NCBI GenBank assembly: GCA_964591805.1
Contig: CAZQDD010000008.1
Location: forward strand, 27,667 to 91,666
Length of the DNA stretch: 64,000 bases
DNA from: an uncultured Acidobacteriaceae bacterium
GTDB lineage: Bacteria > Acidobacteriota > Terriglobia > Terriglobales > Acidobacteriaceae
Reading direction: 5' to 3'
The translations under genes and the position numbers were made by a program. Under the pieces are notes generated by a model. The model worked only from the letters and a program-made list of their open reading frames with translations, had not been told where the DNA came from and searched no databases. This document shows positions 9,497 to 25,256 of the stretch, piece after piece (within the stretch, counting starts at the first letter, position 1; each line of letters starts with the position of its first letter).

Positions 9497-10093
9497 ATGT
9501 TACTTCCCCACGAGTCGTTGATTACTGCCCGCATTACCGATCACCTCGCCCTCATGGCTTCTCTTCTCAAAGATGCTACTTACCTGGCCGCCTTATCCGG
9601 CGCGGCCGTGGCCATGGCTCACGCCTTGCGCGCCGGGAACAAAGTCCTGTTCTTCGGCAACGGAGGCAGCGCCGCCGACGCGCAGCACCTTGCCGCCGAA
9701 CTGACCGGGCGCTTCCTTCTGGAACGCCGCAGCCTGCCAGCCCTGGCGCTTACTACGAACAGTTCCGCCCTCACCGCAATCGGCAATGACTATGGCTTCG
9801 ACGATGTTTTCGCGCGCCCACTCGCCGGACTGGGCGCCGCCGGAGACATTGCCTTCGCCCTGAGTACCAGTGGTAACTCGCCCAACGTACTGCGCGCCGT
9901 TGAGGTCGCTCACGCCAAGCAGATGGTTACCATAGGACTTGGCGGGAGAGCCGGAAAACTGTCCATCCTGGCGCAACATCCTGTCTCGATTCCCTCTGAC
10001 TGCACCCCGCGCATCCAGGAAGCGCACATCCTTACCGGCCATATTCTTTGCGAGATTATCGAACGGGAGTTATTCGACGGCGTCGGACTCTAG
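9497..10093 (+). CDS. gmhA: D-sedoheptulose-7-phosphate isomerase (SIS domain)
   Basis: VLFFGNGGSAADAQHLAAELTGRF, ALTTNSSALTAIGNDYGFDDVF and ALSTSGNSPNV are GmhA/SIS signature blocks. Length is 198 aa. Confidence 0.8.
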   Translation: MLLPHESLITARITDHLALMASLLKDATYLAALSGAAVAMAHALRAGNKVLFFGNGGSAADAQHLAAELTGRFLLERRSLPALALTTNSSALTAIGNDYGFDDVFARPLAGLGAAGDIAFALSTSGNSPNVLRAVEVAHAKQMVTIGLGGRAGKLSILAQHPVSIPSDCTPRIQEAHILTGHILCEIIERELFDGVGL

Positions 10094-10172
10094 CAGCGGG
10101 AGCGGCTTGCTACTTACCACCCGGCATTACTCTTTACTTCTTTACTGAAGAGGTAAGGAAAAAACGCTCGTC

Positions 10173-10628
10173 CTATGTCTGGCGGAACGAGATGTGCTTA
10201 TGGCCGAAAAAGCTGAATACCACGGTGAGAACCGTCAGTAGAGCGCCGGCAATGTATGGAGCTTGTCTATCATAGCCCGAGTAATGTCGGATAATGAAGA
10301 CAACGATGGGCAGCAACGCCATGTTCAACGCGATACTGGTGCTGTAAACGGCTACGCACCGGCACCACTCGCGAAAATAGTTACCCTTGGTCTTGAAGAC
10401 AAACCATTTGTACCCGAGAAAAGAAACCGTAATATTAATCAGCGATGACGGAATGACCGCCAGCAGGTAACTCTGCCGTCCCAGGGGGGCCAGCAAGGCA
10501 GTAAAGAGCGCGAATGTTCCGTACCCAAAGAGAGTATTCCACACTCCGGTGACCAGGTAGCGCAGCAGTTGGCCGGGCGGAACATGTCTGGTCAGTAGCT
10601 GGAGCCAGGATTCGGAAGGTGTGCTCAC
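10173..10628 (-). CDS. GtrA-family membrane protein (putative polyprenyl-phosphate-sugar translocation component)
   Basis: 151 aa with four TM segments. LLRYLVTGVWNTLFGYGTFALF and the C-terminal FVFK/FSFFGHKHISFR pattern are typical of GtrA-like proteins. Confidence 0.7.
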   Translation of the reverse strand: MSTPSESWLQLLTRHVPPGQLLRYLVTGVWNTLFGYGTFALFTALLAPLGRQSYLLAVIPSSLINITVSFLGYKWFVFKTKGNYFREWCRCVAVYSTSIALNMALLPIVVFIIRHYSGYDRQAPYIAGALLTVLTVVFSFFGHKHISFRQT

Positions 10629-10631
10629 GTC

Positions 10632-11636
10632 TCAGGCTCCAGCGCTATTTTCTTCGTTGGTTTTCAGCGGCTCGCCGGGACCGAATTCAAAGTTAACCCG
10701 TTCCAGCTCAATTGCAAATGGCCGCTTCTGCACCATGGTGTGGATTGCGCCGATGTACTCGCCGATCATTCCGAGAAAGAGCAGGTGAATGGATGCAAGG
10801 AAAAAGAATCCGATCAGGATCGGCGCGACGCCAAGGGAAAAGCTTCTCCAATACAAAAGTTTGTACGCAAGGTAGACAAACGAAGTAAGTACCGAGAGAA
10901 CCGCGCCTCCAAATCCGGCAAAGACCGCCAGCCGCAGCGGCACCTTGGAGAGATTTGTAATCCCCAGCATTGCCATATCGTACAAGGTATAGAAGTTGTT
11001 TGCCGTCACTCCGTGCTTGCGTACCGGCTGGTGATAGGGTAACTCCACCCGCGGAAATCCAAGTTCGGCGATGATGCCACGGAAGTAAGGGTATGGGTCA
11101 TCGAGCGATTTGATTAGATCGGCCACCTTGCGGTCGTAGAGACCAAAGCCGGTAAAGTTCTCATAAGTCTCTATTCCGGAGAGCCGGTTCACCAGGCGGT
11201 AGTAACGCTTGCGAATCCAGAACATCAGGCTGCTCTCTTCGCTGGCGACCTTGACGCAGATGACCACCGGCGTACCGGCCTCCCAGTGCCGCACCATATC
11301 CACAATCATCTCGGGCGGATCCTGCAAATCGGCGACAATACCGATCACCGCGTCGCCCGTGGTCTGGTGGAATGCGTGCATGGGTGAGCGGATATGGCCA
11401 AAGTTACGCGTGTTGCGGATGACCTTGACATTCCTGTCCGCCGCCGCAATCGCTTTCAGTACGCCCAAGGTGTTATCCGTGGAAGCGTTGTCGATAAAGA
11501 TGTGCTCGTAGCGGTAGTTACCAAGTGAGGCGACGGCCGCCCTCACGCGTTCGTACAATTCGCGCACGTTTAACTCTTCGTTGTAGCATGGCGTAATAAT
11601 GCTAAGGGTCTTCAATGATTCACTCCGAGTCATCAA
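10632..11636 (-). CDS. GT2 polyprenyl-phosphate glycosyltransferase (GtrB/ArnC/DPM1-like)
   Basis: LSIITPCYNEELNV, IFIDNASTDNT and the DLQDPPE motif of the GT-A fold are present, plus two C-terminal TM helices as in GtrB/ArnC. Its start overlaps the 3' end of the upstream SDR gene. Confidence 0.75.
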   Translation of the reverse strand: MMTRSESLKTLSIITPCYNEELNVRELYERVRAAVASLGNYRYEHIFIDNASTDNTLGVLKAIAAADRNVKVIRNTRNFGHIRSPMHAFHQTTGDAVIGIVADLQDPPEMIVDMVRHWEAGTPVVICVKVASEESSLMFWIRKRYYRLVNRLSGIETYENFTGFGLYDRKVADLIKSLDDPYPYFRGIIAELGFPRVELPYHQPVRKHGVTANNFYTLYDMAMLGITNLSKVPLRLAVFAGFGGAVLSVLTSFVYLAYKLLYWRSFSLGVAPILIGFFFLASIHLLFLGMIGEYIGAIHTMVQKRPFAIELERVNFEFGPGEPLKTNEENSAGA

Positions 11637-12504
11637 ACGTTAGTTGTTCCACGCCGAACTGATCCGCGTGTGCTTCATACCACTGGTAAAGTTCCCGGAT
11701 GCAGGCATTCATCTGGCGCATGCAGGAGCCGCCAATCTCGCTCAACATGCGGGTGTTATCCCCGCTGTACTCCGGACCCATCGCCGGGTTACGCACGATG
11801 ATATCCGGATTGCGGCCCGACGCGGCGGCTACCATTCCCGCCAGTTCCAGCAGCGGAAAAGCTTCTCCTCGGCATACGTTATAAACTTTGTGCCGCGGAT
11901 CGTGTTCAAGGAACCATGCCAGTAACTCCGCAAGCTCGGAAACATAAAGATAGTCGAAGCGGACATCCTGCCGGATCACGATCGGCAGACCCTTCACTAC
12001 GCGCGCGCAGGCGTTTGAAATAAAGCGCACGTCCCATGCTTCGTACTTCCCAAATACTCCGAACAGGCGCAGCACGTAGAGATTGTCCGTAGTCTGGGCA
12101 TGTTTGCTGCAGAGATACTTCGAGAACCCGTACGCATCGGTTGGAATATAAGTGTCGAAGTAATCTTCGCTTACTCTGGCTGGCAGTCCGGCGCGGCAGT
12201 ACTCCGCGCCGGAGCCCAGGTGCAGCATCTTTCCGTACAAAGACCGGTCGAGCGCCAGGTTGAAGAACATCCGGCAGTTGCGGTCGAGCAGGTCGGGCGC
12301 AGCGCCCATGCGGCGGTTGGAGCGTGTGGTTGCCGTGTGCAGAATCACGTCGAACTGCCCCGCGCGCAGAAACTCGCGCACCGAGTTCTGGTCAAGCAGG
12401 TTCAGTTGCGCTGAAGTCGGCGCGACCATGGTGTAACGAGAGCCGAGCGATTCCAGCAGGTTCCGGCCAATGAAACCCGAGCCGCCAGTGAGCAATACTT
12501 TCAC
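11620..12504 (-). CDS. NAD-dependent epimerase/dehydratase (extended SDR)
   Basis: MKVLLTGGSGFIGRNL is a Rossmann GxxGxxG motif, and YGFSK is the catalytic YxxxK. Confidence 0.8.
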   Translation of the reverse strand: MKVLLTGGSGFIGRNLLESLGSRYTMVAPTSAQLNLLDQNSVREFLRAGQFDVILHTATTRSNRRMGAAPDLLDRNCRMFFNLALDRSLYGKMLHLGSGAEYCRAGLPARVSEDYFDTYIPTDAYGFSKYLCSKHAQTTDNLYVLRLFGVFGKYEAWDVRFISNACARVVKGLPIVIRQDVRFDYLYVSELAELLAWFLEHDPRHKVYNVCRGEAFPLLELAGMVAAASGRNPDIIVRNPAMGPEYSGDNTRMLSEIGGSCMRQMNACIRELYQWYEAHADQFGVEQLTFDDSE

Positions 12505-12596
12505 GCCGCCACCAGGCTGAACCGGGAAACCCTGGTCGAGCGTGCCGCATGGCTTCCCGTGGTTTTGCTGTCATCGCCGTGTTTCGATGCCATGGG

Positions 12597-14411
12597 TCAC
12601 TCCGGTAGTGGCGGAACAATCATGTTGGCGGCGAACTCGTCGCGGTCCAGGAACGGCCAGAGGTCTTCGAGCGGTTTGGAAACAAATGATCCGTCGGCGC
12701 GTTGCACCGACGAAAGACGCGGCGCGCGCAATTCATCGGGAATTACCTTCACATCGCAAATCACCGGGCCAGGCATCTCCAGAACCGCGCGCACCGAGGC
12801 ATGCAGATCGGACTGGTCCTCGATTGACACCGCCTTGATTCCGTAAGAGTGCGCAATCTTGAGCAGATCCGGAATTGTGATTCCGGTTTCCTCGCTGCAT
12901 CCGATGTTTGGTGCGCCAAAGAAATTTGTCTGCGAAGCGCGGATGGAGGCGTAGCCATTATTATTCAATACGAAAAACTTGATCGGAAGGCCGAGGTGCG
13001 CAACCGTGGCCAACTCCTGAATGTTCAACTGAAAGCCGCCGTCGCCGTCAACGCAAACCGTGCGCCGGCCTCCGCTGGCGATGCAGACGCCGATGCTGGC
13101 GGCGATGCCATAGCCCATGGCTCCCAGTCCCGCCGTATGGAAGGCGCGCTGGCCTTTACGCACCGGAAAAGCAAAGAGAAAAATTTCAATGCCACTGCCG
13201 GAACTGCCGGAAACAATGCAGTCCAGCGGCGAGGTTTCCGCGGCGATCACTTCGGCGAGATGAAAGATGCTGACGCGGCCACTGGAACGGCGATGCTCGG
13301 CGGTAATCAGGGGATACTTCGTCCTCCAATCCTGGCAGCGCTTCAGCCAGCCCTGGCGGTCGCGGCTGGCAATGTCACTGCGTTGCGCGAGTAATTCGTC
13401 GAGGAAAGCCTTGGCGTCCGCCTGCACCGGCATCTGCACGGTGCCGCCCAACTTCGCCAACTCGGCGGCATCAATATCGACCATCACCTTGAAGGCTCCC
13501 CGCGCCAGGTTCTCCGGGGAATAGCCCACAATAGGCAGGTCCATGCGCGCGCCAATCGCCAGGAGGAAGTCACAATTCTGCAGAACAAAGTTTGCCCCGC
13601 GCGCGGCCAGGGTTCCGGGCCGTCCGGCGAACAGGGGATCGTCTTCGCCCACCATGTCCATGGCCACCCAGGTGGTCTCAACGGGAAGCTGAAGAAGGCG
13701 GATGGTTTCTTCCAGTTGCGGCTGGGCACCCGCCAAACGCACGCCATTGCCGATCATCAGCAGGGGACGTTCGGCTTTGTTCAGCTCTCCGATGATCTGC
13801 TGAACCTGTCGTGAGAGCGCATCGTGCACAGACAAGGATGCGGGCTGGGGCTGGAAGCCGGGGAGCGAACGCTCGTCAATCTGGGCGCCTTGCACGTCGA
13901 TTGGAATGTCGATCCACACCGGTCCAGGCCGCCCGGTGCGCGCCAGATGCACGGCCTTTTCCAGGTGGTAGCGGATACTGGTGGGATCGACGATGGTGAC
14001 CGCGTACTTGGACAGCGGCTCCACGATGGAGACGATGTCGATCTCCTGATTCCCCATCTGCCGCACGCCGCGATGTTTTCCGTTGCCGTCATACATGCGA
14101 TCTGGCCGCTTCACCTGTCCGCTGATGAACAGGCAGGGGGTCGAGTCCAGCCATGCTCCGGCCAGCCCGGTGATCGCGTTGGTACCGCCGGGTCCGGTTG
14201 TAACCATGGCCACGCCGAGTTGATTGGTAAACTTGGCGTAATTCTCGGCGGCAATCGCCGATGCCTGCTCGTGCTGATTGCAGACGTAGTGCAATTCCTG
14301 GCAACGGGCCAGCGAATCGTTCAGGTGCATGGCGCCGCCGCCCACCAGCAGGAAGACGTGACCCACTCCCTGCCCGGCAACAAAGCGCATTACATAGTCG
14401 GACAACTTCAT
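12597..14411 (-). CDS. Thiamine-diphosphate-dependent enzyme (acetolactate synthase large-subunit-like)
   Basis: HEQASAIAAENYAK contains the catalytic Glu region. GLGAMGYGIAASIG and GDGGFQLNIQEL...FVLNNNGY form the ThDP-binding GDG...NN motif. I trimmed the start to the ATG at 14411 (MKLSDYVMRF...). Confidence 0.8.
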   Translation of the reverse strand: MKLSDYVMRFVAGQGVGHVFLLVGGGAMHLNDSLARCQELHYVCNQHEQASAIAAENYAKFTNQLGVAMVTTGPGGTNAITGLAGAWLDSTPCLFISGQVKRPDRMYDGNGKHRGVRQMGNQEIDIVSIVEPLSKYAVTIVDPTSIRYHLEKAVHLARTGRPGPVWIDIPIDVQGAQIDERSLPGFQPQPASLSVHDALSRQVQQIIGELNKAERPLLMIGNGVRLAGAQPQLEETIRLLQLPVETTWVAMDMVGEDDPLFAGRPGTLAARGANFVLQNCDFLLAIGARMDLPIVGYSPENLARGAFKVMVDIDAAELAKLGGTVQMPVQADAKAFLDELLAQRSDIASRDRQGWLKRCQDWRTKYPLITAEHRRSSGRVSIFHLAEVIAAETSPLDCIVSGSSGSGIEIFLFAFPVRKGQRAFHTAGLGAMGYGIAASIGVCIASGGRRTVCVDGDGGFQLNIQELATVAHLGLPIKFFVLNNNGYASIRASQTNFFGAPNIGCSEETGITIPDLLKIAHSYGIKAVSIEDQSDLHASVRAVLEMPGPVICDVKVIPDELRAPRLSSVQRADGSFVSKPLEDLWPFLDRDEFAANMIVPPLPE

Positions 14412-14418
14412 GTGCTGG

Positions 14419-14910
14419 CTATCCCTTGTCCGCAATTGTGCGGGAGATGGAATCGGAAAGAATCATTTCGATCAGTTCGCGCACCGCGCCGTTTCCTCCC
14501 TTGGCGGCCGTAACGAAACGGCATTGCTTGCGGATCGCTGGTTGGGCATCGGCCGGGGCGGCGGGCAGGCCCGCGATTGCAAGCGCCGGCAGATCGTTCA
14601 CATCGTCACCCATGAAGCAGATCTGGTCGAGTGAGAGATTGTGCAGCGCGGCGATTCGCCGCAAGGCCGCCGCTTTGTCCTTGCACGCCTTTTCCACATC
14701 GCCGATTTGCATCTTCGCCGCCAGACGGTCGATCAGCGGGCTATCCTCACCGGAGACGAGGGCCAGCAGCAAGCCCGCTTTCCGGGCCCGTGACAGCCCC
14801 ATGATGTCCGCGAAGTGGAAGCGCTTCCACTCTTCGCCGTTCGGCCCCCACCAGAATGAACCGTCGGTGAGTACGCCATCCACATCCATTGCGATCAGCT
14901 TAATTGCCAC
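14419..14910 (-). CDS. HAD-superfamily phosphatase, KdsC / ulosonate-phosphate phosphatase-like
   Basis: IKLIAMDVDGVLTDG is the DxD nucleophile motif, and FMGDDVNDLPAL is motif IV. Size is about 163 aa. The proposed GTG start at 14910 overlaps the end of the NeuB-like gene by 11 nt. The track extension to 15153 is implausible. Confidence 0.7.
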   Translation of the reverse strand: MAIKLIAMDVDGVLTDGSFWWGPNGEEWKRFHFADIMGLSRARKAGLLLALVSGEDSPLIDRLAAKMQIGDVEKACKDKAAALRRIAALHNLSLDQICFMGDDVNDLPALAIAGLPAAPADAQPAIRKQCRFVTAAKGGNGAVRELIEMILSDSISRTIADKG

Positions 14911-15805
14911 TGCCGGCTCCAACACGGCGCAGCTTCTTGAGGATTGGCTGTTCCCGCTCCAGCACGCGCTTGACGCCATCTCCCATGGAGCGCTCGACGA
15001 CCCGGATGTAGCTGACCAGCTTGGTAATTCCGTTCGGCTCCAGCGAAGCTGCCTGGTCCGATCCCCACATGGCGCGATCGGTTGTGATGTGGCGCTCGAC
15101 GATGCAGGCTCCCAATGCGATGGCCGCAACCGAGGAGGGAAGTCCGGACTCATGTCCCGAGTAGCCCACCGGCAACCCGTAGCGTTCCGCCAAGGTGCGG
15201 ATCGCCTGCAGGTTCAGCTCTTCATAATAGGCAGGATAGGTGCTGCAGGCGTGCAGGAGCACCAGGTTTTCCTTGCCCAGAACTTCCACCGCATGGTCGA
15301 TCTCTTTCACCGTGCTCATACCGGTGGAGAGCAGGATCGGCTTGCCGGTTGCCCGGGTGTGGCGAAGCAGGTTGTCATCGGTCAGCGAAGCCGAGGCGAT
15401 CTTGAAACATGGAACATTGAATCGATGGATGAAGTCGACCGAAGGCTCATCCCAGCAGGATGCAAACCACGGAATCTTTACGGCGCGGCAGTATTGATCG
15501 ATGTCGAGGAAATCCTCGTAGTCGAATTCGAGCGCGCGCTTGAGGTCGCCGTTTGTTGTCCCAAAGGGACTTTCACGAGGTTTGGCCAACTCCTCGGCGG
15601 AATACACGATCTCCACGGTGCGCTTCTGGAACTTGACTGCATCGCAGCCCGCGGCCACGGCGATGCTGATTAAACGCTTCGCCAGATCAACGTCGCCGTT
15701 ATGGTTGATTCCAATCTCGGCGATCACATAACAAGGGTGGCCGTTTCCTATCGTCTTCGTCCCAATTTGTACTGGCTGCAATTTGTTCTGCACTGTCTCC
15801 GACAT
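14900..15805 (-). CDS. NeuB-family (N-acylneuraminate / ulosonic acid) synthase, short form
   Basis: IGNGHPCYVIAEIGINHNGDVDLAKRLI..AGCDAVKFQKR is the NeuB/SpsE signature. The ATG at 15805 is preceded by GGAG. At about 301 aa the protein ends where the SAF (antifreeze-like) domain of canonical NeuB would begin. Confidence 0.75.
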   Translation of the reverse strand: MSETVQNKLQPVQIGTKTIGNGHPCYVIAEIGINHNGDVDLAKRLISIAVAAGCDAVKFQKRTVEIVYSAEELAKPRESPFGTTNGDLKRALEFDYEDFLDIDQYCRAVKIPWFASCWDEPSVDFIHRFNVPCFKIASASLTDDNLLRHTRATGKPILLSTGMSTVKEIDHAVEVLGKENLVLLHACSTYPAYYEELNLQAIRTLAERYGLPVGYSGHESGLPSSVAAIALGACIVERHITTDRAMWGSDQAASLEPNGITKLVSYIRVVERSMGDGVKRVLEREQPILKKLRRVGAGSGN

Positions 15806-18046: not shown

Positions 18047-18883
18047 ATGCTGAAAGCGATATCGACACACCTGCATCTAAGGGAGCGGCTGCATCCGGGA
18101 ATTCTGGACCGACTGGCCGGGGGAGGAGTCACGGGAATCGAAATCTTTGCCATGCGTGGCCATTTCGATTACGACAGTCCGCAGCAGGTTCGCGAGATCG
18201 CGTCCTGGTTCGCTTCGCAAGACGGAGTCAGTGCGCAGTCGATGCATGCGCCGATGTTCCCCTCGGGGGATCGGGGACGATTCGATTTGCCTCCGCTTAA
18301 CATCGCGGGCCATGATCGGCGGGAGCGCATCGAAGCGATGGACGAGATCAAGCGCGCCATTGCAGCCGGGGAGGCGATTCCGTTTCGTTTCCTTGTATTG
18401 CACGTGGGCGTTGCGGGGGAGGGCTTTGATGAACACAAGTTCGAGCAGGCGCTGACTTCCATCGAGCATCTGCGGGCCTTTGCCAAGCCGCTCGGCATGC
18501 GCCTGCTGCTGGAAAACATCGGCAACGAACTCAGCACTCCGGAACAACTGGTAAAGCTGATCCAGACCCTGCGTTACGATGACATCGGAGTGTGCCTCGA
18601 TCTTGGACACGCCCACCTGGGCCCGGGAGTAGAGACGGCGATTGAAATCCTCAAGCCCTGGATCCGTTCGGTTCACGTGCATGACAATCACGGCGTGAAA
18701 GACGAGCACCTGTGGCCGGGCGAAGGCACGATCGACTTCCCCCGCACCATGGAGTTGCTGCGAGCGGCGCCGCAGGTGCCGGCCCTGGTGCTGGAGATCG
18801 AAGGCGATCCCGCGGGCAATCCCGCCTACGGGAAAACCGTGCCCGGAAAGATGCTTGCGTGCTGGAAAATGCTGGAGCCGTAA
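18047..18883 (+). CDS. Sugar phosphate isomerase/epimerase (xylose isomerase-like TIM barrel)
   Basis: LVLHVGV, LLLENIGNE, CLDLGHAHLG and VHVHDNHG..DEHLWPGEGTIDF are metal-binding motifs of the AP_endonuc_2/TIM-barrel family. The antisense ORF 18077..19270 is rejected. Confidence 0.75.
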   Translation: MLKAISTHLHLRERLHPGILDRLAGGGVTGIEIFAMRGHFDYDSPQQVREIASWFASQDGVSAQSMHAPMFPSGDRGRFDLPPLNIAGHDRRERIEAMDEIKRAIAAGEAIPFRFLVLHVGVAGEGFDEHKFEQALTSIEHLRAFAKPLGMRLLLENIGNELSTPEQLVKLIQTLRYDDIGVCLDLGHAHLGPGVETAIEILKPWIRSVHVHDNHGVKDEHLWPGEGTIDFPRTMELLRAAPQVPALVLEIEGDPAGNPAYGKTVPGKMLACWKMLEP

Positions 18884-23114: not shown

Positions 23115-25256
23115 ATGCAGAACTTTACGGTCGCCGACCTGGTGCAGACCACCTTCGCGACGTTGGCCTTCGCTCTATTTCTTCTTCCTCCCGGATATCT
23201 GCTGGGTCTGGCCAGCAACCTTTTCGGCATGCGCAGCCGTTCCGCGGCCGAAAAGATACTGTTCAGCGTGGCGTTTTCCATTGCCGCCACTCCCATCCTG
23301 GCAGTGCTACTGACGCGAATTTCTTCCTACAAGATCACGCTGGCGTTTTTCCTTCTGCTTGCCGTGATCGCCATGGCAAACGTCCTCAGGCAGCTCCCGC
23401 TTCCGGCAGGATTTTTCAGGGGTATTCGGCAGAGCACATGGCTCCTGCTCGGCATGATGCTGGCCTGGTTCCTGGCCGTGCAGTTCGCGCTCGCCGACCT
23501 GCAGATCGGGCATCGTCTCTACATCAGCTTTGTGGCCTTCGATCACTCCGTGCGCCTGCCGCTGGTCGAGGCGGCGGCAAGAGGTGGAATCCCGCCCCGC
23601 AATCCCTTCTACGGCGTAGGGAAAATTCCCGTTCTTCGATATTTCTACTACTGGTATGTCGTGTGTGCCTTGCCGATGCGGCTGGCCGGCCTGAGCGCCA
23701 AAGGTTGCTTCGACGCCAGCGTGTTCTGGAGCGGACTCGGACTCGGGGCCATCATTCCACTTTTCCTGAAGTACTTCCTTGGCGAGACGGAACATCTTCG
23801 CAGAAAATCCGTGATCGGGATCGCGTTGCTTGCGGTGACCGGCCTGGATCTTCTCCCTTATAGTGCAAAGGTCCTGCACCTTCACGCATTGTTCCCCGAC
23901 ATGGAGTGGTGGGACTCAAACCAGGTCACGTCCTGGCTGGGTTCGCTGTTATGGGTGCCGCATCATGTGGCGGCGCTTACGGCCTGCATGGCTGGCCTGC
24001 TCGCGCTCTCCACGGTCGAGGAGGATCACCCGCTGCGACCCAGGGCCTGGGCCGCGGCATTGGCAGGATTGGCCTTTGCCAGCGCCGCCGGCCTCTCGGT
24101 CTACGTGACCTTTACCTTCGCCGTTTTTGCGATTTGCTGGGCGCTGCAGACGCTCCGGCAGAAGAGAATCAAGACCGTTGCCACCTATGTGGCGACGGCT
24201 GCTTTTTCGCTATTGCTCTCATGGCCTTTCCTGCTGGATTTGCTTTTAAATCCGGCGGCTACGGTTGTGGGCTCCTCCCCTGGCGGCGGGCAATTCGCTC
24301 GTTTCGCGATCCGCGATTGTTCCGATGCGCTCCTGCTCCTGGGCCAGTTGGGCCTGCACAACGTCTGGCTGCTCAATCTGGCGAAGCTGCCGGTACTTCT
24401 GATCGTGTACCTCCTCGAGTTCGGATTTTTCGCCCTGATCATGGTGTTGAATCTGCGCAGAGACCGGCGGAACCCGGTTCCGCTGACCAGGCAGCGCCGC
24501 ATGGCGTGGATGATGTTCGTGGTCTGCCTGCTGACAATGAGCATTGCCAAGTCTGACGCGACGAGTCAAAACGACCTGGGGTACAGGGGTATGCTCGTCG
24601 TCCAGTTTGTCCTGCTACTATGGTCGGCACCGCTGCTGCACGATGCTTTCTACCATAAAGGTGCCAGTGCGCCCGTGGGTCCTGAGCCGGCGTGGATCAA
24701 GAGTCTATTGATTTGCACGCTGGTGCTCGGTGTGGCCGGAACCACGTACCAGTTCGTTACGCTGCGCGTTTACGCACCCCTGGCGGACACCGGGAAGTGG
24801 GCGCGTGCGGAAACCTTTCTTGGCGACCCGGGGTTTGGAGAGCGAACCTACTGGATGCGCGAGGGCTTCAGCCGGCTCAACGGACTCACTTCCTCCAGCA
24901 CGTCGGTGCAATACAACCCGGTGCGGGACGAGGCCCTGATCGCCCGTCTGTATTCCACGCGGCAGACGGCTATGGCAGATGCGTTTTGCGGCAGCGCCTT
25001 TGGCGGCGACCTGCAAAAATGCAGGGAGGCGTTTCCGCGCATCGCCTCGGCTTTCAATTCTCCAAGTGCCGCGCACCGCCTGAATCTGGATGGCTTTTGC
25101 GATGACTTCCGGGTGAATGTGCTGGTGGCCACCGATGTGGACCCTGTCTGGCAGGATAAGAGTAGCTGGGTCTGGGCCCGGCCCAGCCTCCTGTCCAACC
25201 CATCGCTGCGCGCAATCCGTTGCGGCACCGCACCTGGTTCTCCCCTCGGGCGATAA
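23115..25256 (+). CDS. Large polytopic membrane protein of unknown function (713 aa)
   Basis: At least 12 hydrophobic segments are followed by a C-terminal soluble region of about 150 aa. I recognise no defining motif. It belongs to the set of large membrane proteins around the cytochrome cluster. Confidence 0.7.
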   Translation: MQNFTVADLVQTTFATLAFALFLLPPGYLLGLASNLFGMRSRSAAEKILFSVAFSIAATPILAVLLTRISSYKITLAFFLLLAVIAMANVLRQLPLPAGFFRGIRQSTWLLLGMMLAWFLAVQFALADLQIGHRLYISFVAFDHSVRLPLVEAAARGGIPPRNPFYGVGKIPVLRYFYYWYVVCALPMRLAGLSAKGCFDASVFWSGLGLGAIIPLFLKYFLGETEHLRRKSVIGIALLAVTGLDLLPYSAKVLHLHALFPDMEWWDSNQVTSWLGSLLWVPHHVAALTACMAGLLALSTVEEDHPLRPRAWAAALAGLAFASAAGLSVYVTFTFAVFAICWALQTLRQKRIKTVATYVATAAFSLLLSWPFLLDLLLNPAATVVGSSPGGGQFARFAIRDCSDALLLLGQLGLHNVWLLNLAKLPVLLIVYLLEFGFFALIMVLNLRRDRRNPVPLTRQRRMAWMMFVVCLLTMSIAKSDATSQNDLGYRGMLVVQFVLLLWSAPLLHDAFYHKGASAPVGPEPAWIKSLLICTLVLGVAGTTYQFVTLRVYAPLADTGKWARAETFLGDPGFGERTYWMREGFSRLNGLTSSSTSVQYNPVRDEALIARLYSTRQTAMADAFCGSAFGGDLQKCREAFPRIASAFNSPSAAHRLNLDGFCDDFRVNVLVATDVDPVWQDKSSWVWARPSLLSNPSLRAIRCGTAPGSPLGR

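Follow-up and report, generated by a model that had tools for sequence, protein, structure and literature searches.

The 64,000-nucleotide stretch of DNA analyzed here, called the window below, comes from an uncultured Acidobacteriaceae bacterium and carries six tightly packed minus-strand genes at positions 10173–15805. They encode a NeuB-like synthase, a KdsC-type phosphatase, a thiamine diphosphate (ThDP)-dependent enzyme, a short-chain dehydrogenase/reductase (SDR), a family 2 glycosyltransferase (GT2), and a GtrA protein. This operon is most likely the side-chain and lipid-loading half of a pathway that branches a cytidine diphosphate (CDP)-3,6-dideoxyhexose, and the cassette is most likely a widespread variant of a known branched-sugar pathway. 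With moderate confidence, we read the operon as one part of a split pathway, responsible for the side chain, the branching, and the lipid loading of a 3,6-dideoxyhexose that bears a very long polyhydroxylated branch at C-4.

The six gene identities proposed in a first-pass annotation of the window were all correct, each assignment being confirmed by both Pfam and NCBIfam. Reading along the minus strand, the operon begins with a NeuB-family phosphoenolpyruvate (PEP)-condensing synthase (14900–15805; 301 aa, ATG start, PF03102 only), followed by a KdsC-type haloacid dehalogenase (HAD) phosphatase (14419–14925; 168 aa, TIGR01670) whose GTG start lies inside the end of the NeuB gene. Next come a predicted YerE-like ThDP carboligase (12597–14411; 604 aa, ATG start) with three thiamine pyrophosphate domains and an extended SDR (11620–12504; 294 aa) with Epimerase and RmlD_sub_bind domains. 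The last two genes encode a GtrB/ArnC-type polyprenyl-phosphate GT2 (10632–11636; 334 aa, PF00535) and a small membrane protein of the GtrA family (10173–10628; 151 aa, PF04138). The NeuB and HAD genes overlap by 26 nt, and the GT2 and SDR genes overlap by 17 nt; the gaps are 7 nt between HAD and ThDP, 92 nt between ThDP and SDR, and 3 nt between GT2 and GtrA. An alternative upstream TTG start at 14435 would lengthen the ThDP enzyme to 612 aa. A promoter and terminator scan gave nothing above chance. The nearest homologs are found in Terriglobales and other Acidobacteriota. The G+C content over 10001–12000, which holds the GT2, GtrA, and SDR genes, is 0.54 versus ~0.60 in the flanks; this could reflect membrane-protein composition or a separate acquisition.

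By its sequence, the ThDP enzyme is a YerE-like protein. Among solved structures, it is closest to JanthE of Janthinobacterium sp. HH01 (PDB IDs: 8rph, 8rpi, and 8rpj; 423 bits over the full length for 8rph) and then to PpYerE (5ahk; 277 bits), and the best match to an acetohydroxyacid synthase (AHAS) structure follows behind both at 239 bits. The first-pass annotation had asked to which subfamily the enzyme belongs and had considered a bona fide acetolactate synthase with a small subunit nearby. The enzyme scored 348.8 bits against TIGR00118 (cut-off, 538.35 bits) and remained under every AHAS cut-off, and the same genome has a housekeeping ilvB (711.8 bits) together with ilvN on contig C13. 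The scores and this true ilvB–ilvN pair rule out a housekeeping acetolactate synthase. The ThDP motif is kept as GDG in the window enzyme, whereas JanthE, the closest solved relative, has CDG. In the literature, JanthE is described as resembling YerE and accepting a wide range of donors, and its physiological substrates are unknown (PMC12188165, PMC12247030). We propose that the window enzyme would decarboxylate an ulosonic acid and attach the remaining chain to C-4 of CDP-4-keto-3,6-dideoxyglucose.

The distribution of the enzyme across genomes points to the same acceptor. Of 151 evenly sampled Acidobacteriota genomes, nine held a ThDP homolog (E value up to 1e-90), and all nine also had rfbH, which occurred in only 11 genomes in total; this co-occurrence is a pattern and not a statistical test, the genomes being related to one another. 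All five further cluster-bearing genomes likewise had rfbH, including two in which it was not within 9 kb. Such co-occurrence is the signature of a YerE-type enzyme that branches CDP-4-keto-3,6-dideoxyglucose. In the closest relative, G001, a ThDP ortholog interrupted by TGA codons lies outside the operon at C3:337890–339674 (seen in L093 and L094).

Related loci were compared to place the operon in context. The 80 loci fetched were the best of at least 560 relatives of the NeuB-like protein in species genomes, with 67–87% identity to the synthase, and they span Acidobacteriota, Verrucomicrobiota, Planctomycetota, Vulcanimicrobiota, Pseudomonadota, Actinomycetota, Nitrospirota, Thermodesulfobacteriota, and Chloroflexota. 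Their neighborhoods were annotated from raw open reading frames (ORFs) by a crude longest-ORF gene call, which left some antisense artifacts. The ORFs were clustered all-against-all, and family representatives were then scanned with profiles. The gene arrangement is far beyond chance: the HAD gene recurs in 73 of these loci and the ThDP gene in 57. The recurrent order in relatives is RfbF-RfbG-RfbH-NeuB-HAD-ThDP-(FkbM)-SDR-(FkbM)-GT2-GtrA-GmhA, as in L002, L022, and L033; the profile scans identify RfbF as glucose-1-phosphate cytidylyltransferase, RfbG as CDP-glucose 4,6-dehydratase, and RfbH as the 3-dehydrase. Locus L076 of Acidocella aquatica NBRC 112502 holds the NeuB-HAD-GT2 portion, and Granulicella is represented among the carriers by a metagenome-assembled genome only. 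The rfbFGH genes stand beside the ThDP gene in most of the complete related loci. The alternative to the FkbM methyltransferases is a block composed of a TIM-barrel isomerase, Gfo/Idh/MocA, and short SDRs. The window operon is a reduced version of this cluster, lacking both rfbFGH and the methyltransferases. Elsewhere in the window, a xylose-isomerase-like TIM-barrel gene (18047–18883, plus strand) follows a gamma-glutamyltransferase gene; its product shares a Pfam family with the isomerase encoded in the relatives' clusters but is not a close homolog of it (no match).

The genome of the bacterium nevertheless holds the three genes that the window operon lacks, each scoring above its cut-off. 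The rfbG gene (505 bits on TIGR02622) and the rfbH gene (735 bits on PRK15407) overlap each other on contig C14, and rfbF (428 bits on TIGR02623) lies alone on contig C38. Since relatives place NeuB-HAD-ThDP behind rfbF-rfbG-rfbH and these genes are kept on other contigs here, the missing nucleotidyltransferase is explained. The first-pass annotation was right that the operon itself contains no nucleotidyltransferase, but the nucleotide-free pathway implied by it does not hold. The genome has a single strong CTP_transf_3 gene (contig C19), which is KdsB-like and presumably kdsB. On contig C14 (C14:13526–19084, equivalent to L091:5527–11088), genes for a PagL-like lipid A deacylase, RfbG, RfbH, and an ArnT-like GT-C glycosyltransferase stand in a row, followed on the other strand by an HpnI-like GT2 gene and a complete GDP-heptose set (hddC-gmhB fusion, hddA, and gmhA). 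This stretch looks like an island for the modification of lipid A or lipopolysaccharide (LPS).

A NeuB-family PEP-dependent synthase paired with a KdsC-type phosphatase is the standard route to 3-deoxy-2-ulosonic acids in their free form, and such acids are themselves hydroxylated 2-keto-3-deoxy acids. The window synthase matches PF03102 with 263.7 bits (cut-off, 22.1 bits), and no SAF match was found in it by the Pfam and NCBIfam scan. Its alignment with TIGR03569 (264 bits, under the cut-off of 400 bits) covers model positions 1–274 of 329, and because the match ends there, the SAF part is truly absent, as the first-pass annotation had noticed. The SAF-less state is a family trait: the best 120 homologs of the synthase are all 275–339 aa long with PF03102 only, and the closest solved structure, 6ncs, is likewise short (290 aa). 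The stretches KFQK, FKIAS, LSTGMS, LHACSTYP, GYSGHE, and ERHIT align with 6ncs and 1vli, and would serve in metal and PEP binding, as in the NeuB of Neisseria meningitidis. The synthase is taken to be active because KFQK, FKIAS, STG, HACSTYP, and GYSGHE are kept. The phosphatase exceeds the cut-off of TIGR01670 (116.9 versus 106.95 bits) and has the nucleophile motif DVDGVLTDG of the DxDxT type; its top equivalog-level matches are KDN-9-phosphate phosphatase and KdsC, with neither equivalog cut-off reached. In two loci (L007 and L017), the ThDP gene comes straight after the NeuB gene with no HAD gene between them, and the phosphatase may be encoded elsewhere or be dispensable there.

In the usual routes, the ulosonic acid is activated by a cytidine monophosphate (CMP)-transferase. 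No CTP_transf_3 gene is present within the 64-kb window, as had been claimed for the operon. Among the 57 ThDP-bearing loci of the 80, none contains a CTP_transf_3 gene (the count required the cytidylyltransferase domain, the HAD half of a fusion not being enough), and the eight Chloroflexota loci with a CMP-transferase all lack the ThDP gene. Loci from three further Acidobacteriota genomes (L096–L098), with orthologs of 55–56% identity, also have a CMP-transferase and no ThDP gene. In a quick maximum-likelihood tree with Shimodaira–Hasegawa-like approximate likelihood ratio (SH-aLRT) support, the ThDP-adjoining NeuB copies and 15 copies with neither gene form one clade of 73 (SH-aLRT 99), which includes the window synthase but none of the CMP-linked copies, whose branches lie immediately outside it. 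Pairing with a YerE-like gene is also found among more distant NeuB-family proteins in two rfbFGH clusters of Acidobacteriota, one encoding a protein with a normal SAF domain (L099:12119–13222, plus strand; 367 aa) and the other a protein fused to a C-terminal cupin domain (L100:9391–11019, minus strand; 542 aa). Owing to this exclusivity of the ThDP and CMP-transferase genes, the separate clade, and the distant NeuB–YerE pairings, the ulosonic acid would be the donor of the ThDP enzyme and not a separate sugar. The first-pass idea that the ThDP enzyme acts on the 2-keto acid product of the synthase is thus supported.

The Chloroflexota clusters (L051, L053, L057, L067–L069, L074, and L080) form a type of their own. 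They contain two or three NeuB paralogs and two cytidylyltransferases, one of them fused to a HAD phosphatase, together with GmhA, a TIM-barrel isomerase, Gfo/Idh/MocA, and an SDR. This gene set resembles a pathway for a CMP-activated ulosonic acid, and the pathway may likewise start from a heptose phosphate. We found no published description of this two-cytidylyltransferase cluster in Chloroflexota.

The aldose phosphate for the synthase may be supplied by the neighboring gmhA gene (9497–10093, plus strand), which encodes a predicted sedoheptulose-7-phosphate isomerase of 198 aa and is convergent with the operon at a distance of 79 nt from the GtrA gene. The protein scores 183 bits against TIGR00441, under the cut-off of 209 bits. 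It aligns over the full length with GmhA of Burkholderia pseudomallei, about half of the residues being identical, and keeps AQH..E and IQE.H...GH, presumably the catalytic and zinc-site residues. The link between gmhA and the operon, put forward as speculation in the first-pass annotation, gained support from the relatives: 26 of the 80 loci have gmhA within 9 kb of the synthase gene, whether divergent, convergent, or co-directional. Locus L024 carries it between HAD and ThDP, its start and stop overlapping both neighbors, and it is kept in the CMP-type Chloroflexota clusters as well. A gene for a heptose-7-phosphate kinase or GmhB was found in none of the 80 loci. A second gmhA gene of the same genome belongs to the complete hddA/hddC-gmhB GDP-heptose set on contig C14. 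Most simply, the synthase would take heptose-7-phosphate directly as its substrate, a reading to which we give slightly less than even weight.

The extended SDR is conserved in the relatives' clusters, and its solved relatives are remote. It is the natural candidate for the role of YerF because it is the only reductase in the window operon, and we propose, by analogy, that it may reduce the branch carbonyl. For the GT2 protein, the best solved relative is GtrB (sll0501) of Synechocystis (155 bits), followed by ArnC (111 bits), and the top NCBIfam matches are PgfS (170 bits) and ArnC (112 bits), both far under the cut-off. Its C-terminal region has two hydrophobic segments, at residues 232–257 and 265–298. 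An ortholog of this protein (53–88% identity) comes straight after the pathway genes in Acidobacteriota, Verrucomicrobiota, Planctomycetota, and Vulcanimicrobiota. The GtrA protein matches PF04138 with 48.1 bits (cut-off, 26.1 bits) and has three hydrophobic segments over the threshold; its gene is conserved beside the GT2 gene in relatives, and the protein is proposed to be the flippase partner. The first-pass reading of these two genes as a GtrB/GtrA pair agrees with the likeness to GtrB sll0501 and ArnC, the two C-terminal segments, and the PF04138 match. The related clusters usually lack Wzx/Wzy-type or serial glycosyltransferase genes, and the usual lack of other assembly genes fits a decoration that would be assembled on polyprenyl phosphate, with its transfer taking place outside the cytoplasm.

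A third component of the GT-C type would then be required for the transfer. The best candidate is the ArnT-like PMT_2 protein, whose gene directly follows rfbG-rfbH on contig C14 and lies near the PagL-like gene. The adjacency of rfbH and an ArnT-like gene is also found in the closest relative (G001, locus L001). This adjacency comes from two genomes only, and an ArnT-like gene is near the cluster in only one of the 80 loci. Lipid A or LPS as the acceptor is hinted at because the ArnT-like gene adjoins rfbG-rfbH and the PagL gene. The first-pass annotation had pointed to GT-C candidates 10–35 kb downstream of the operon; these find no support from homology, the GT-C and tetratricopeptide repeat genes of the window not being homologous to the ArnT-like protein beside rfbG-rfbH. 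One polytopic membrane protein of the window (23115–25256, plus strand; 713 aa) shares 34% identity over 718 aa with a membrane-protein family (569–748 aa) found beside the cluster in six related loci. It matches no Pfam family, and the lone lead is DUF2298, present in 12% of the members of one Atlas cluster; the protein is a weak candidate for a GT-C-like third component.

Here, we propose a pathway whose chemical steps we infer from the observed gene identities, conserved linkage, and co-occurrence. GmhA would convert sedoheptulose-7-phosphate to d-glycero-d-manno-heptose-7-phosphate; this is the least certain step, with an inferred substrate, and is put forward tentatively. The SAF-less NeuB-like synthase would condense the aldose phosphate with PEP to a 3-deoxy-2-ulosonate phosphate, from which the KdsC-type phosphatase would remove the phosphate group. 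The free α-keto acid would not be activated with CMP and would instead serve as the donor for the YerE-like ThDP enzyme. This enzyme would decarboxylate the donor and add the resulting acyl-anion equivalent to C-4 of CDP-4-keto-3,6-dideoxy-d-glucose, the acceptor supplied by the products of rfbF (contig C38) and rfbG-rfbH (contig C14). The branch carbonyl would be reduced by the SDR, as in the case of YerF. In the last steps, the GtrB-type GT2 may transfer the branched sugar from CDP to polyprenyl phosphate, GtrA may assist in flipping the lipid-linked sugar, and a GT-C enzyme, for which the ArnT-like protein is the best candidate, would attach it to an acceptor in the envelope. Carried to its full detail, the scheme would give a ten-carbon ulosonic acid from PEP and d-glycero-d-manno-heptose-7-phosphate, the C9 chain of which would be grafted to form a 15-carbon sugar on polyprenyl phosphate. 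This sugar would be set on lipid A or LPS by the ArnT-like GT-C, as an envelope decoration common among peat and soil bacteria of many phyla. We consider this detailed version doubtful, and to our knowledge, a ten-carbon 3-deoxy-ulosonic acid has not been found in nature.

Several points weigh against the proposed branching pathway. We know of no glycan with such a sugar from any carrier, and the enzyme roles given here come from sequence. Free 3-deoxy-2-ulosonic acids are mostly cyclic in solution and may be poor donors for ThDP enzymes, and GtrB-type enzymes that use CDP-sugars are not known to us. In the genome of the bacterium, the CDP-sugar genes are on contigs C14 and C38, away from the operon. 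Only about one locus in three has gmhA within 9 kb, and the gene could be no more than an LPS-core gene carried along with envelope loci. The closest relative (L001) has its ThDP gene ~15 kb away from the operon, and the match there contains TGA stops, which could be assembly errors or signs of a decaying gene. As JanthE and YerE accept pyruvate, the ThDP enzyme could also work without the product of the NeuB-like synthase.

The last point leads to an explanation with two separate products that meet in one glycan. The NeuB/HAD pair would make an acid like 3-deoxy-d-glycero-d-galacto-nonulosonic acid (Kdn) or 3-deoxy-d-manno-octulosonic acid (Kdo), to be activated with CMP by the KdsB-like enzyme, and the ThDP enzyme would make a CDP-sugar with a yersiniose-type two-carbon branch from pyruvate, which would be the sole donor of the GT2. 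YerE uses pyruvate, and JanthE accepts it among its donors (PMC9306805, PMC12247030). The strong CTP_transf_3 gene on contig C19 and the orthologous NeuB-like genes that adjoin CMP-transferases in Chloroflexota and some Acidobacteriota would also fit. This explanation is nevertheless quite unlikely. A ThDP gene and a CMP-transferase gene never occur together in the 80 loci or in those of the three extra genomes, the NeuB, HAD, and ThDP genes overlap or nearly abut here and in most relatives, several distinct NeuB lineages are paired with YerE-like genes, and the ThDP-linked NeuB copies have a clade of their own with no CMP-linked member. A simpler chemistry, already raised in the first-pass annotation, would have the ThDP enzyme decarboxylate the ulosonic acid to a 2-deoxy-aldose, which the SDR would reduce or epimerize without any CDP-sugar. 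The superfamily does include many simple 2-keto-acid decarboxylases, and the CDP-sugar genes are outside the window. We regard a plain decarboxylase as highly improbable, because the nearest characterized relatives are carboligases that accept ketones, the ThDP homolog and rfbH co-occur in nine of nine genomes with rfbFGH beside the ThDP gene in most complete loci, and a GtrB-type GT2 needs a nucleotide-activated donor that such a route would not supply.

The third alternative concerns the lipid-loading module. The GT2 and GtrA genes could be unrelated neighbors, such as a glucosylation module or one resembling that for 4-amino-4-deoxy-l-arabinose (Ara4N), and the branched sugar would then be used by cytoplasmic glycosyltransferases encoded elsewhere. 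When only those ThDP-bearing loci that have 8 kb on both sides are considered, the GT2 gene is in the locus in only 22 of 41, and other GT2 genes are present in some relatives. The drop in G+C content at 10–12 kb (0.54 versus ~0.60) could mark a separate acquisition. Against this, the GT2 gene overlaps the SDR gene by 17 nt, its ortholog recurs after the pathway genes in four phyla at 53–88% identity, and the clusters usually have no Wzx/Wzy-type or serial glycosyltransferase genes of their own. An unrelated GT2–GtrA pair is unlikely in our view, and we retain the branching pathway with its lipid-loading module as the preferred reading.

If the branching pathway is correct, NeuB-family synthases would have a second fate besides the CMP-activated sialic-acid-like sugars, namely to provide large α-keto acids for ThDP carboligases. 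Branched higher-carbon sugars, known so far from yersiniose up to gastriose, would reach C14–C15, and the type of cellular donor used by JanthE-type enzymes, which are now under development as biocatalysts, would be suggested. Acidobacteria and other abundant phyla of soil and peat would also be expected to carry an envelope decoration that has not been seen before. All of the proposed steps can be tested with soluble recombinant enzymes. No publication that pairs NeuB with YerE-like enzymes was found in a full-text search, which did not cover Krug et al. (2024) and the supplement of PMC9306805, where such clusters might already appear.

The closest published precedent is the pathway of acyl-branched sugars. 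Steitz et al. (2022) reported that ErwE, MMAR_2332, and MyGE accept hydroxylated C4–C8 2-keto acids as donors, and proposed that dedicated aldolases in the erwiniose, caryophyllose, and gastriose clusters make these donors and that a YerF-like reductase finishes the branch (PMC9306805). Because its ThDP enzyme is YerE-like, the window operon falls under this scheme. The operon, called unusual in the first-pass annotation, is therefore not entirely unexplained, but the NeuB/KdsC pair in the place of the aldolase does set it apart. In common with the erwiniose (ErwE/ErwF/ErwI/ErwJ), caryophyllose (MMAR_2331/2332), and gastriose (MyGE/MygF/MygI) systems, the system has a YerE-like ThDP enzyme, a putative reductase, genes for CDP-4-keto-3,6-dideoxyglucose, and predicted dedicated donor-making enzymes. 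The donor would come from a NeuB synthase and a KdsC phosphatase, whereas theirs comes from a pyruvate aldolase; neither the operon nor the gene families that recur in the 80 loci include an aldolase of the HpaI, BphI, or citrate-lyase type. The predicted branch is also longer (C8–C9), a GtrB/GtrA lipid-loading module is attached, and the genes are split over three contigs. The yersiniose A pathway of Yersinia pseudotuberculosis (DdhABCD/AscA-D with YerE and YerF) would share the ThDP-dependent addition to C-4 of CDP-4-keto-3,6-dideoxy-d-glucose and the subsequent NAD(P)H-dependent reduction, but YerE adds a two-carbon branch from pyruvate, and NeuB, KdsC, and GmhA have no part in it.

The other half of the likeness is to the routes via KDN-9-phosphate, N-acetylneuraminic acid (Neu5Ac)-9-phosphate, and Kdo-8-phosphate, in which an aldose phosphate reacts with PEP before a KdsC-family HAD phosphatase dephosphorylates the condensation product. 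The window system differs from them in lacking the SAF domain and the CMP-transferase, which the sister NeuB copies of Chloroflexota keep; its product is apparently consumed by the ThDP enzyme, and its proposed substrate is a heptose phosphate. With the three-component systems (GtrA/GtrB/GtrC, ArnC/ArnE-F/ArnT, and CsbB/YfhO), the genome shares a GtrB/ArnC-type GT2 with two C-terminal helices, GtrA, and the ArnT-like GT-C beside rfbG-rfbH. Unlike in those systems, the GT-C gene stands outside the operon, and the donor would be a CDP-linked branched dideoxy sugar and not a UDP-sugar.

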